Positions 22,151 through 23,230 of a DNA stretch of 30,191 nucleotides are shown one piece after another. The notes below the pieces were generated by a model. That model searched no databases. It worked only from the letters and a program-made list of their open reading frames with translations, and was not told the DNA's origin. The translations under genes and the position numbers were made by a program. This DNA is from a virus: UHGV virus genome UHGV-0176705, one strand, 5' to 3'. Positions within the stretch are counted from its first letter, which is position 1. Each line of letters starts with the position of its first letter.

Positions 22151-23230
22151 ATGGCTAATACTGTAAAAATATCCAGTTGTGAGTTAATCAACGCTGATTG
22201 CCTGGAATTTATCCAGACCTTACCGGAAAACTCTGTCGATCTGATAGTCACAGACCCGCCATACTTTAAAGTGAAGCCCGAGGGCTGGGATAACCAGTGG
22301 AAGGGCGACGATGATTACCTGAAATGGCTGGACCAGTGTCTGGCGCAATTCTGGCGGGTACTGAAGCCTGCCGGAAGTCTTTACCTGTTCTGTGGTCATC
22401 GCCTGGCATCTGACACCGAAATCATGATGCGTGAACGCTTTAATGTGCTGAACCACATTATCTGGGCGAAGCCGTCCGGGCGCTGGAACGGGTGCAACAA
22501 GGAAAGCCTGCGGACGTATTTCCCGGCAACAGAACGCATTCTGTTTGCAGAACATTATCAGGGGCCATACCAGCCCAAAAATGACGGCTATGTGGCAAAG
22601 GGGCGCGAGCTTAAGCAGCACGTGATGGCTCCGCTGATTTCTTACTTTCGTGATGCGCGTGAATCACTGGGGATAACGTCAAAACAGATAGCGGAAGCCA
22701 CCGGAAAGAAAAACATGGCTTCGCACTGGTTTGGTACCAGTCAGTGGCAGTTGCCGAATGAAGGCGATTATCTGAAATTACAGGCGTTGTTTGCGCGTGT
22801 TGCAGCAGAAAAACATCAGCGCGGTGAACTGGAAAAGCCACACCACCAGCTGGTCAGCACATACAGTGAACTGAACCGGCGATATGCCAGTCTGCTGGAG
22901 GAGTACAAATCCCTGCGGCGTTATTTTTCCGTATCGGCTGCCGTTCCGTATACGGATGTCTGGACGCACAAGCCTGTGCAGTATTACCCCGGCAAACATC
23001 CCTGTGAGAAACCGGCGGATATGTTGCGTCAGATAATTACCGCCAGCAGCCATCCGGGAGATTTGGTCGCTGATTTTTTTATGGGGTCGGGGTCAACAAT
23101 AAAAGCAGCATTGTCGCTGGAGCGCCGTGCGATAGGTGTGGAGCTGGAGGCTGTACGGTTTAACCAGACAGTGAAAGAGATAAATGCGCTGGTGGTTAAT
23201 CAGGCAGATAAGTGTTACCCGGAAAAATAA
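22151..23230 (+). CDS. DNA methyltransferase (N6-adenine/N4-cytosine, beta-class), apparently orphan
   Basis: Motif IV TDPPY precedes the AdoMet-binding motif DFFMGSGST (beta-class order); no adjacent restriction endonuclease gene seen. Confidence 0.85.
   Translation: MANTVKISSCELINADCLEFIQTLPENSVDLIVTDPPYFKVKPEGWDNQWKGDDDYLKWLDQCLAQFWRVLKPAGSLYLFCGHRLASDTEIMMRERFNVLNHIIWAKPSGRWNGCNKESLRTYFPATERILFAEHYQGPYQPKNDGYVAKGRELKQHVMAPLISYFRDARESLGITSKQIAEATGKKNMASHWFGTSQWQLPNEGDYLKLQALFARVAAEKHQRGELEKPHHQLVSTYSELNRRYASLLEEYKSLRRYFSVSAAVPYTDVWTHKPVQYYPGKHPCEKPADMLRQIITASSHPGDLVADFFMGSGSTIKAALSLERRAIGVELEAVRFNQTVKEINALVVNQADKCYPEK

Follow-up and report, generated by a model that had tools for sequence, protein, structure and literature searches.

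Does a solitary DNA methyltransferase gene among the late genes of a prophage mark the chromosome of its host at a defined site, or does it serve the phage in lytic growth? The question is raised by positions 22,151–23,230 of UHGV virus genome UHGV-0176705, a stretch of 30,191 nucleotides (nt) that we analysed in full and refer to as the window. The original prediction for this locus, made from the letters of the sequence, described an orphan beta-class methyltransferase that protects phage DNA from host restriction, has a target site predictable by homology and can alter the epigenome of lysogens. We assign the gene to the M.EcoGII family and, with a probability of roughly 80%, read its product as a non-specific adenine methyltransferase that is off in the lysogen, expressed late under the control of the antiterminator Q and used against restriction. 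The gene itself is ordinary and belongs to a very common and already known family; what may be new is a conserved structured element that lies immediately upstream of it.

A beta-class methyltransferase of the M.EcoGII family

The gene is an intact open reading frame (ORF) running from ATG to stop, and translation confirmed its coordinates and the two motifs that had been reported for it. Catalytic motif IV (TDPPY) lies upstream of motif I (FMGSGST), which binds S-adenosylmethionine (AdoMet), and this order identifies the enzyme as beta-class. Profile searches agreed with that assignment: Pfam PF01555 (N6_N4_Mtase) matched residues 29–340 with an E-value of 8.5e-43 and a score of 147 bits (cut-off 26.7), three PHROG families annotated ‘DNA methyltransferase’ matched with E-values of 1e-97 to 1e-108 and the PADLOC model MTase_II matched with an E-value of 3.9e-153. 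The motif and domain match is far beyond chance. Damaged catalytic motifs, which had been named as grounds for doubting the gene, were not found: across 42 aligned homologs residues D35, P36, P37, Y38, F309, F310, G312, S313 and G314 are invariant and both the catalytic and the AdoMet motifs are intact here, although a glycine kept throughout the family near motif I is replaced by glutamate, a change that we return to below.

Sequence matches in the Protein Data Bank (M.BceJIV, M.RsrI, M.MboIIA, CcrM and M1.HpyAVI) were confined to amino acids (aa) 8–114 and 281–347, leaving about 165 residues in the middle of the protein without a sequence match among solved structures, as would be expected of a family-specific target-recognition domain (TRD). 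An AlphaFold model built with the 42 homologs, which we used solely for fold class and for the local position of residue 324, has a Rossmann core and a helical central domain. Foldseek placed this model with the beta-class amino-methyltransferases, its fold matching CcrM, M.BceJIV, M.MboIIA and M.RsrI.

Identity as CcrM, YhdJ or a Dam-like enzyme was considered and rejected. The NCBIfam equivalogs for CcrM and YhdJ (NF050803 and NF008572) were missed by a wide margin (72.6 versus 830 bits and 107.2 versus 292 bits, respectively) and the motif order is beta, not alpha. CcrM and YhdJ share their Pfam family and fold with the window enzyme, but they have other TRDs, are site-specific and are encoded on chromosomes. 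N4-cytosine methyltransferases of PF01555 carry SPP[YF] rather than DPP[YF]; this class was rejected too, as the catalytic motif here is DPPY and is invariant in the family.

Over its full length the protein is 85% identical (297 of 350 positions) to M.EcoGII, a 349-aa beta-class enzyme from a prophage of Escherichia coli O104:H4 that methylates adenine in any context (PMC5778455). It is equally close (85%) to the enzyme of phage 1720a-02 and closer still (92%) to L24 of phage phiP27. The sequences of M.EcoGII (EGT69837.1) and of its reconstructed ancestors were machine-read from Table S1 of the SUPREM paper (PMC11551740). The M.EcoGII sequence so obtained was validated by its 93% identity to the 1720a-02 enzyme, described as very similar to M.EcoGII in the work that also notes how large this family is among E. 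coli prophages (PMC5778455, Murray et al.).

Identity to M.EcoGII varies by domain, at 94.8% in the N-terminal core, 80% in the first linker, 84.6% in the TRD, 73.9% in the second linker and 75.3% in the C-terminal core. The TRD aligns without insertions or deletions and differs at 12 of 78 positions, while the two linkers (aa 135–159 and 238–260) align without gaps at about 74–84% identity and each carry a net charge of +2, with isoelectric points of 9.3–9.4; the charge of the TRD is also net positive. The reconstructed ancestor Anc291 matches the window protein slightly better than M.EcoGII itself does (87.2% identity in the TRD). In a neighbour-joining tree that included M.EcoGII, Anc291, Anc289 and Anc284 (the last being SUPREM), the window protein emerged as sister to the M.EcoGII subclade and below the ancestors. 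M.EcoGII, Anc291 and SUPREM all act without a methylation motif, on RNA (PMC11551740).

The best-supported identity of the protein, judged by sequence, is thus a further allele of the M.EcoGII family. It most likely methylates adenine without sequence specificity and, because it is 85% identical to M.EcoGII with the TRD included and nests in a non-specific clade, there is probably no target site to predict; on this point the original prediction, which had looked to homology for such a site, is not supported (PMC5778455).

M.EcoGII and M.EcoGI, both from prophages of E. coli O104:H4 C227-11, resemble the window enzyme in the order DPPY–TRD–FxGxG, in a length of about 349 aa, in 85% identity that extends through TRD and linkers and in being prophage-borne without a restriction partner (PMC5778455). 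The window enzyme differs from both in having a C-terminal extension of 10 aa (NQADKCYPEK), in its mosaic 3′ end and in the substitution Gly324Glu. We attribute the extension and the lower identity of the C-terminal core to a recombination junction near the 3′ end. When a 2.3-kb query spanning the gene, the small ORF before it and the tRNA-Arg gene after it was compared with complete E. coli genomes, it was matched in 2533 of 5426, and most of the matches ended at about 23150–23185. The DNA encoding the extension, within the mosaic end (23150–23230), was matched by three complete E. coli genomes only (E9, E423 and PSS-15), among which tail and glutamate were confirmed at the protein level for E9 alone. 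That the family is large also shows in database searches, where 2921 clusters matched at E ≤ 1e-10, several with members numbering in the thousands.

Probable late expression and the case for anti-restriction

The gene had been placed in the late region, and this can now be refined: it is the first large gene downstream of a putative late promoter, pR′. The promoter element, TTTACGTACGTAAAAA...GTTAAGAGTGG, sits exactly where similarity to phiP27 and 1720a-02 sets in. In two Trabulsiella genomes, whose Q is 81–82% identical to that of the window, it lies 67–68 nt after Q; the distance is about 40 nt in phage 1720a-02 and 1564 nt, across a porin gene, in the window. We infer from these arrangements that the element is the Q-cognate late promoter and that the porin gene has been inserted between Q and pR′.

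Between pR′ and the methyltransferase lie two terminator-like hairpins, one a putative tR′ and the other at the end of the small ORF; the region 19600–24300 as a whole holds 16 terminator-like sites, against 4.9±2.4 expected. In the standard lambdoid layout, Q-modified RNA polymerase alone reads through such terminators (PMC7547250). A gene that lies past pR′ and two terminator hairpins fits Q-dependent expression at induction and silence in the lysogen. Three further terminator-like hairpins (23666–23684, 23692–23713 and 23805–23820) precede the holin genes. The small RNA (sRNA) StxS was set aside as a comparison, as it belongs to another clade of Q and is not comparable.

What has been reported for the family agrees with silence in the lysogen. 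In the lysogen from which they come, M.EcoGI and M.EcoGII are not expressed, and their expression slows growth (PMC5778455; PMC12707154); O111 strains of Shiga toxin-producing E. coli that carry homologs display only the methylation motifs GATC, CTGCAG and CRARCAG (PMC6602927). The proposal that the enzyme alters the epigenome of lysogens therefore runs counter to the behaviour of its relatives (PMC5778455; PMC12707154; PMC6602927). Comparing the methylomes of a lysogen and a cured strain, as had been suggested, would probably yield no signal, which would be mistaken for a refutation; DNA from induced cells or virions is the informative sample.

That the methyltransferase is an orphan was confirmed. 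Its neighbours are Q, the porin, the small winged-helix ORF, tRNA-Arg, holins, endolysin and terminase; no restriction endonuclease stands beside it, and the neighbours have neither a nuclease domain in Pfam or PHROG searches nor a PADLOC match. The locus thus lacks the cognate endonuclease next door that marks a Type II restriction-modification system. Across 80 loci that sample different species, ranging from Escherichia to Xenorhabdus, Photorhabdus, Yersinia and Serratia, homologs of the Q, winged-helix, holin and endolysin genes of the window recur in the same order wherever they could be detected; these loci were not scanned for nucleases.

The observations made here concern membership of the family, the integrity of the motifs, the order of the genes, signals for the start and end of transcription and the lack of a restriction partner; building on them, the following mechanism may be proposed. 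The enzyme, probably acting as a dimer, would methylate adenines in any context through linkers of positive charge and a helical domain that binds DNA without discrimination. In the lysogen, transcripts from pR′ would stop at tR′ and at the second terminator, keeping a growth-impairing enzyme off. At induction, Q-modified RNA polymerase would read through, so that the enzyme would be made together with tRNA-Arg and the lysis genes during replication and packaging. Progeny DNA heavily modified with N6-methyladenine (m6A) would thereby be protected in the next host from many adenine-sensitive restriction systems of Types I, II and III.

Protection from host restriction, put forward in the original prediction as established, is indeed the accepted, though still inferred, role of the family and is favoured by the authors of the M.EcoGII work and by a 2025 review (PMC5778455; PMC12707154); for the window gene itself it would follow by extension from its relatives. 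Mom of phage Mu offers an analogue rather than a homolog: it too is silent in lysogens, toxic, expressed late and protective against many restriction systems (PMC12707154), but it is an unrelated protein that carbamoylmethylates adenine and is controlled by Dam/OxyR and Com instead of Q antitermination.

Three other readings were weighed against this one. A site-specific orphan enzyme that marks the lysogen chromosome at a defined recognition sequence and so alters host expression would suit the habits of PF01555, most of whose members are site-specific, as well as the public label ‘site-specific DNA-methyltransferase’ given to homologs and the dozen TRD differences from M.EcoGII. We nonetheless consider it very improbable, given the full-length identity to a non-specific enzyme, a position inside a clade bounded by non-specific ancestors, the two terminators that separate promoter from gene and homolog-bearing lysogens that show no motif attributable to the enzyme (PMC5778455; PMC6602927). 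The nearest relative with a confirmed site, M.PflMI (CCANNNNNTGG), falls in the same sequence-similarity cluster and has a similar predicted overall fold, but it is only about 27% identical to M.EcoGII, belongs to a restriction-modification system and lacks the charged interdomain linker found here (PMC11551740). The enzyme might instead have a main role other than anti-restriction, such as methylation of RNA or single-stranded DNA, timing of replication or packaging, or shutdown of the host in lytic growth. M.EcoGII does methylate RNA, single-stranded DNA and DNA:RNA hybrids in vitro, an elaborate conserved element accompanies the gene and direct proof of anti-restriction is missing from the family literature examined. 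Against this, the initial velocity of M.EcoGII on DNA exceeds that on RNA about 90-fold (11.12 versus 0.12; PMC11551740 Table S3), late timing alongside packaging is what protection of DNA needs and the published opinion cited above leans the other way, so that we judge such a role unlikely.

The remaining reading, that the window allele is catalytically dead or strongly weakened and belongs to a decaying prophage, turns on residue 324, which falls after motif I in the conserved segment LGRRAIGVELE (‘LGRRxIGxE’). Glycine occupies this position in all 41 other aligned homologs, in most of 120 cluster representatives and in the distant M.BceJIV; in the model, residue 324 sits in a short loop, predicted to be a tight turn, between the helix that follows motif I (315–322) and the strand with the AdoMet-binding glutamate (326–330). 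However, the ORF runs its full length and retains every catalytic residue, and the same glutamate recurs in E. coli E9, whose 359-aa protein is 97% identical and bears the same C-terminal tail, and in the more divergent cluster P0007, which reads ‘SLERR’. Asp, Ser or Arg is found here in a few further representatives that are intact. This pattern suggests a tolerated polymorphism, with a small but real chance that activity is impaired.

Several points weigh against a non-specific, lysogen-silent, anti-restriction enzyme, which we continue to prefer. Non-specific activity of this allele is extrapolated from its family, and the non-specificity of the ancestors was shown on RNA, not mapped on DNA (PMC11551740). 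The comparison sequences, read from a PDF by machine, are marred in a few places by obvious misreadings, the tree was built simply by neighbour joining and confidence in the structure model is moderate, with a pLDDT (predicted local distance difference test) of 70. Glutamate in place of a family-wide glycine beside the AdoMet-binding strand could weaken folding or cofactor binding. The tR′ hairpin is bulged here and has four G-C pairs, where phiP27 and 1720a-02 have perfect 5–6-bp CCCGCC/GGCGGG stems followed by T-runs; a weaker tR′ could raise basal read-through, so that full silence in the lysogen is not guaranteed. Finally, anti-restriction has not been directly demonstrated for any family member in the M.EcoGII-family literature examined.

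A conserved structured element before the start codon

The spacer between the small ORF and the methyltransferase holds a conserved element of about 138 nt that abuts the start codon. An nhmmer profile of the spacer found it in about 55 loci, ending 0–2 nt before the inferred start of the methyltransferase, apart from three weak matches that were off by 15–20 nt. It is kept in loci without the small ORF too, which indicates that the methyltransferase is linked to the non-coding element and not to the small ORF. In Xenorhabdus and Photorhabdus the spacer is shorter and holds at most the first hairpin. A protein-coding spacer was ruled out by single-nucleotide insertions and deletions across genera.

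Folding of the spacer was far stronger than in column-shuffled alignments, with z-scores of about −6 to −8. The consensus from 31 diverse copies comprises an outer stem (UGGGC/GCCCA) around two hairpins, followed by a third hairpin. Compensatory double changes were present in 12 of its 21 pairs, against 4.7±1.4 in shuffled alignments (0 of 500 shuffles reached this), and the covariation score was 0.244 versus 0.114, with slid controls all ≤0.10. Synonymous-codon entropy in codons 2–16 of the methyltransferase was 0.64, compared with about 1.3 elsewhere in the gene, a halving that implies that the constrained element extends into the start of the coding sequence. Rfam held no family for the element, even at permissive thresholds.

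Evidence on the strand that might be transcribed points both ways. The plus-strand model has 29 G·U pairs versus 15 A·C mismatches. For the minus strand, the consensus energy is lower (−33.0 versus −24.6 kcal/mol for the plus strand), stability is greater in 27 of the 31 sequences and hairpin B is 11 bp long, with G·U pairs that give way to A-U or G-C in divergent taxa. Read on that strand, the conserved motif GAGCCTATCA gives TGnTAnnnT, as in an extended −10 promoter, although a simple promoter scan called no minus-strand promoter at the element and no clear terminator was found there.

We tentatively propose, while holding the idea to be less likely than not, that the element is a regulatory RNA that has not been described before and serves this family in particular, whether as a structured leader of the mRNA or as an antisense RNA encoded in cis. 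If so, it would add a post-transcriptional lock to Q antitermination, helping to keep a growth-impairing methyltransferase off in lysogens. Control of the hok/sok and CopA/CopT type provides an analogy for the element only, in that a multi-hairpin element that folds on both strands lies over the 5′ region of a harmful gene; the element has no sequence or Rfam similarity to those systems. Hfq-bound prophage sRNAs of 51–60 nt cluster downstream of pR′ (PMC4104026), but these are different molecules from the upstream element, and the window holds no copy of them. There was no match to an AgvB/AsxR-type anti-sRNA in the window, and none of the Hfq-bound Sakai sRNAs EcOnc01–33, the part of the published table covered here, lies at the position of the small ORF and hairpin A. 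The Sakai prophages examined carry no methyltransferase.

The small ORF is the first gene of the late transcript after pR′. Public records name its homologs ‘TrmB family / DprA-like winged helix’, PF17782 is found on some of them and they share a conserved ‘CQLxLTQ..AGL’ helix. Among 75 loci with enough flanking sequence, 52 have a homolog upstream of the methyltransferase on the same strand, at 37–98% identity. An obligatory cassette of small ORF and methyltransferase was rejected, as the ORF is missing from the other 23 loci, many of which still have leader and methyltransferase. Prophages Sp4 and Sp11 of Sakai have the small ORF ahead of an unrelated gene of 588 nt and carry no methyltransferase. 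We conclude that the small ORF is a real gene that is not tied to the methyltransferase. The Sakai 588-nt gene (positions 2304–2891 of the Sp4 locus and 5433–6020 of the Sp11 locus), annotated as an ‘AraC-family regulator’ or ‘phage regulatory protein’, occupies the methyltransferase slot, preceded by the small ORF and by the first hairpin of the leader only.

Prophage context and implications

The element that carries the gene is a phiP27-like, stx-negative lambdoid prophage of E. coli. Among phages, phiP27 comes closest, half of the prophage being 94% identical to it in DNA. The window, which is E. coli chromosomal DNA, opens with a low-GC island that includes a P4-type integrase and continues with the lambdoid prophage, which encodes a repressor, Rha and Ash proteins and, for replication, a helix-turn-helix (HTH) initiator, a DnaC-like loader and DnaB. 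Downstream of the methyltransferase come tRNA-Arg, two holins, a GH108 endolysin and the terminase subunits. Coordinates are collected in Table 1.

The order of genes from Q to lysis is common to phiP27, phage 1720a-02 and E. coli E9. Both phages share with the window the succession of Q, an inserted gene in some cases, pR′, small winged-helix ORF, conserved leader, methyltransferase and one or more tRNAs; they differ in having stx2 after the tRNAs, where the window goes directly to the holins. The gene between Q and pR′ encodes a GIY-YIG nuclease in phiP27 and a porin in the window. The tRNA-Arg gene stands where Shiga toxin (Stx) phages have ileZ/argN/argO and then stx; no toxin genes follow it here.

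Table 1. Features of the locus and of its prophage, with positions in the window
Feature	Position	Strand	Evidence or remarks
Methyltransferase	22151..23230	+	M.EcoGII-family beta-class N6-adenine DNA methyltransferase, 359 aa, intact
Catalytic motif IV TDPPY (aa 34–38)	22250..22264	+	Translation; invariant in 42 homologs
Helical target-recognition domain (aa 160–237)	22628..22861	+	Predicted helices; limits from PMC11551740
AdoMet motif I FMGSGST (aa 310–316)	23078..23098	+	Translation; invariant core
Codon 324 GAG (Glu for Gly)	23120..23122	+	Alignment of 41 homologs; allele common to E9 and P0007
Antiterminator Q, 127 aa	19677..20060	+	Pfam PF06530 Phage_antitermQ, E 1.4e-52; PHROG 79, anti-termination protein Q-like
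Putative late promoter pR′	21596..21623	+	−35 TTTACG, 16-nt spacer, −10 TATGAT; promoter scan
Putative tR′ terminator, hairpin and T-run	21659..21679	+	Alignment with phiP27 and 1720a-02
Winged-helix ORF, 65 aa	21803..22000	+	PHROG 331 (unknown function), E 1.4e-37; homolog of phiP27 L23
Terminator-like hairpin and T-run, end of small ORF	21987..22014	+	Terminator scan; fold z = −2.17; 4/4 stem pairs covary across genera
Conserved structured non-coding element, ~138 nt	22013..22150	.	nhmmer profile, covariation; abuts methyltransferase start
Parts of the element	Outer stem 22022–22026 with 22094–22098; hairpin A about 22027–22057; hairpin B about 22060–22086; hairpin C 22102–22116		
Conserved motif GAGCCTATCA within the element	22122–22131		
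Terminator-like hairpin and T-run, 3′ of methyltransferase	23355..23386	+	Fold z = −3.03; 0/200 shuffles as stable
tRNA-Arg (UCU)	23419..23495	+	ARAGORN, Rfam tRNA, phiP27 synteny; position of argO in Stx phages
Prophage integrase	7566–8774	−	
S24/HTH repressor	12828–13520		

Other features of the window lie outside the late operon or run against it. The porin gene (20253–21350, minus strand) is full length and of the OmpC/NmpC type (Pfam Porin_1, E-value 1e-154); it lies in the opposite orientation between Q and the late promoter and is annotated ‘ompC’ in related prophages of enterotoxigenic E. coli. It looks like a moron and could alter outer-membrane properties of the lysogen. Two large ORFs (572 and 588 aa) at 177–3645, in a stretch with a GC content of 33–35% beside the P4-type integrase, carry the Pfam domains HEF_HK plus HATPase_c and Response_reg_2, a pair described for NTP-dependent conflict systems; PADLOC found no match in the low-GC island. 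Tyrosine integrases of different types, at 4172–5443 (P4-type) and at the position of the prophage integrase, both on the minus strand and about 2 kb apart, suggest a genomic island and a prophage integrated in tandem. An SPFH/Band 7 family protein is encoded at 9756–10583 (minus strand), in the early-left region of the prophage.

For annotation, these results mean that the pipeline label ‘site-specific DNA-methyltransferase’ is probably wrong for the family and invites pointless hunting for motifs. The upstream element, together with the layout behind pR′, hints at how cells can put up with so harmful an enzyme. Should it prove to be a regulatory RNA, the element would be a new case in which RNA controls a counter-defence gene of a phage, and it could help to tame M.EcoGII-type enzymes, which are widely used as reagents for chromatin accessibility and RNA labelling. 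Because the 2.3-kb region is so frequent among complete E. coli genomes, DNA heavily modified with m6A may be common in lambdoid and Stx-type phages after induction, with consequences for host range, for the spread of toxin phages and for sensitivity to m6A-dependent restriction.

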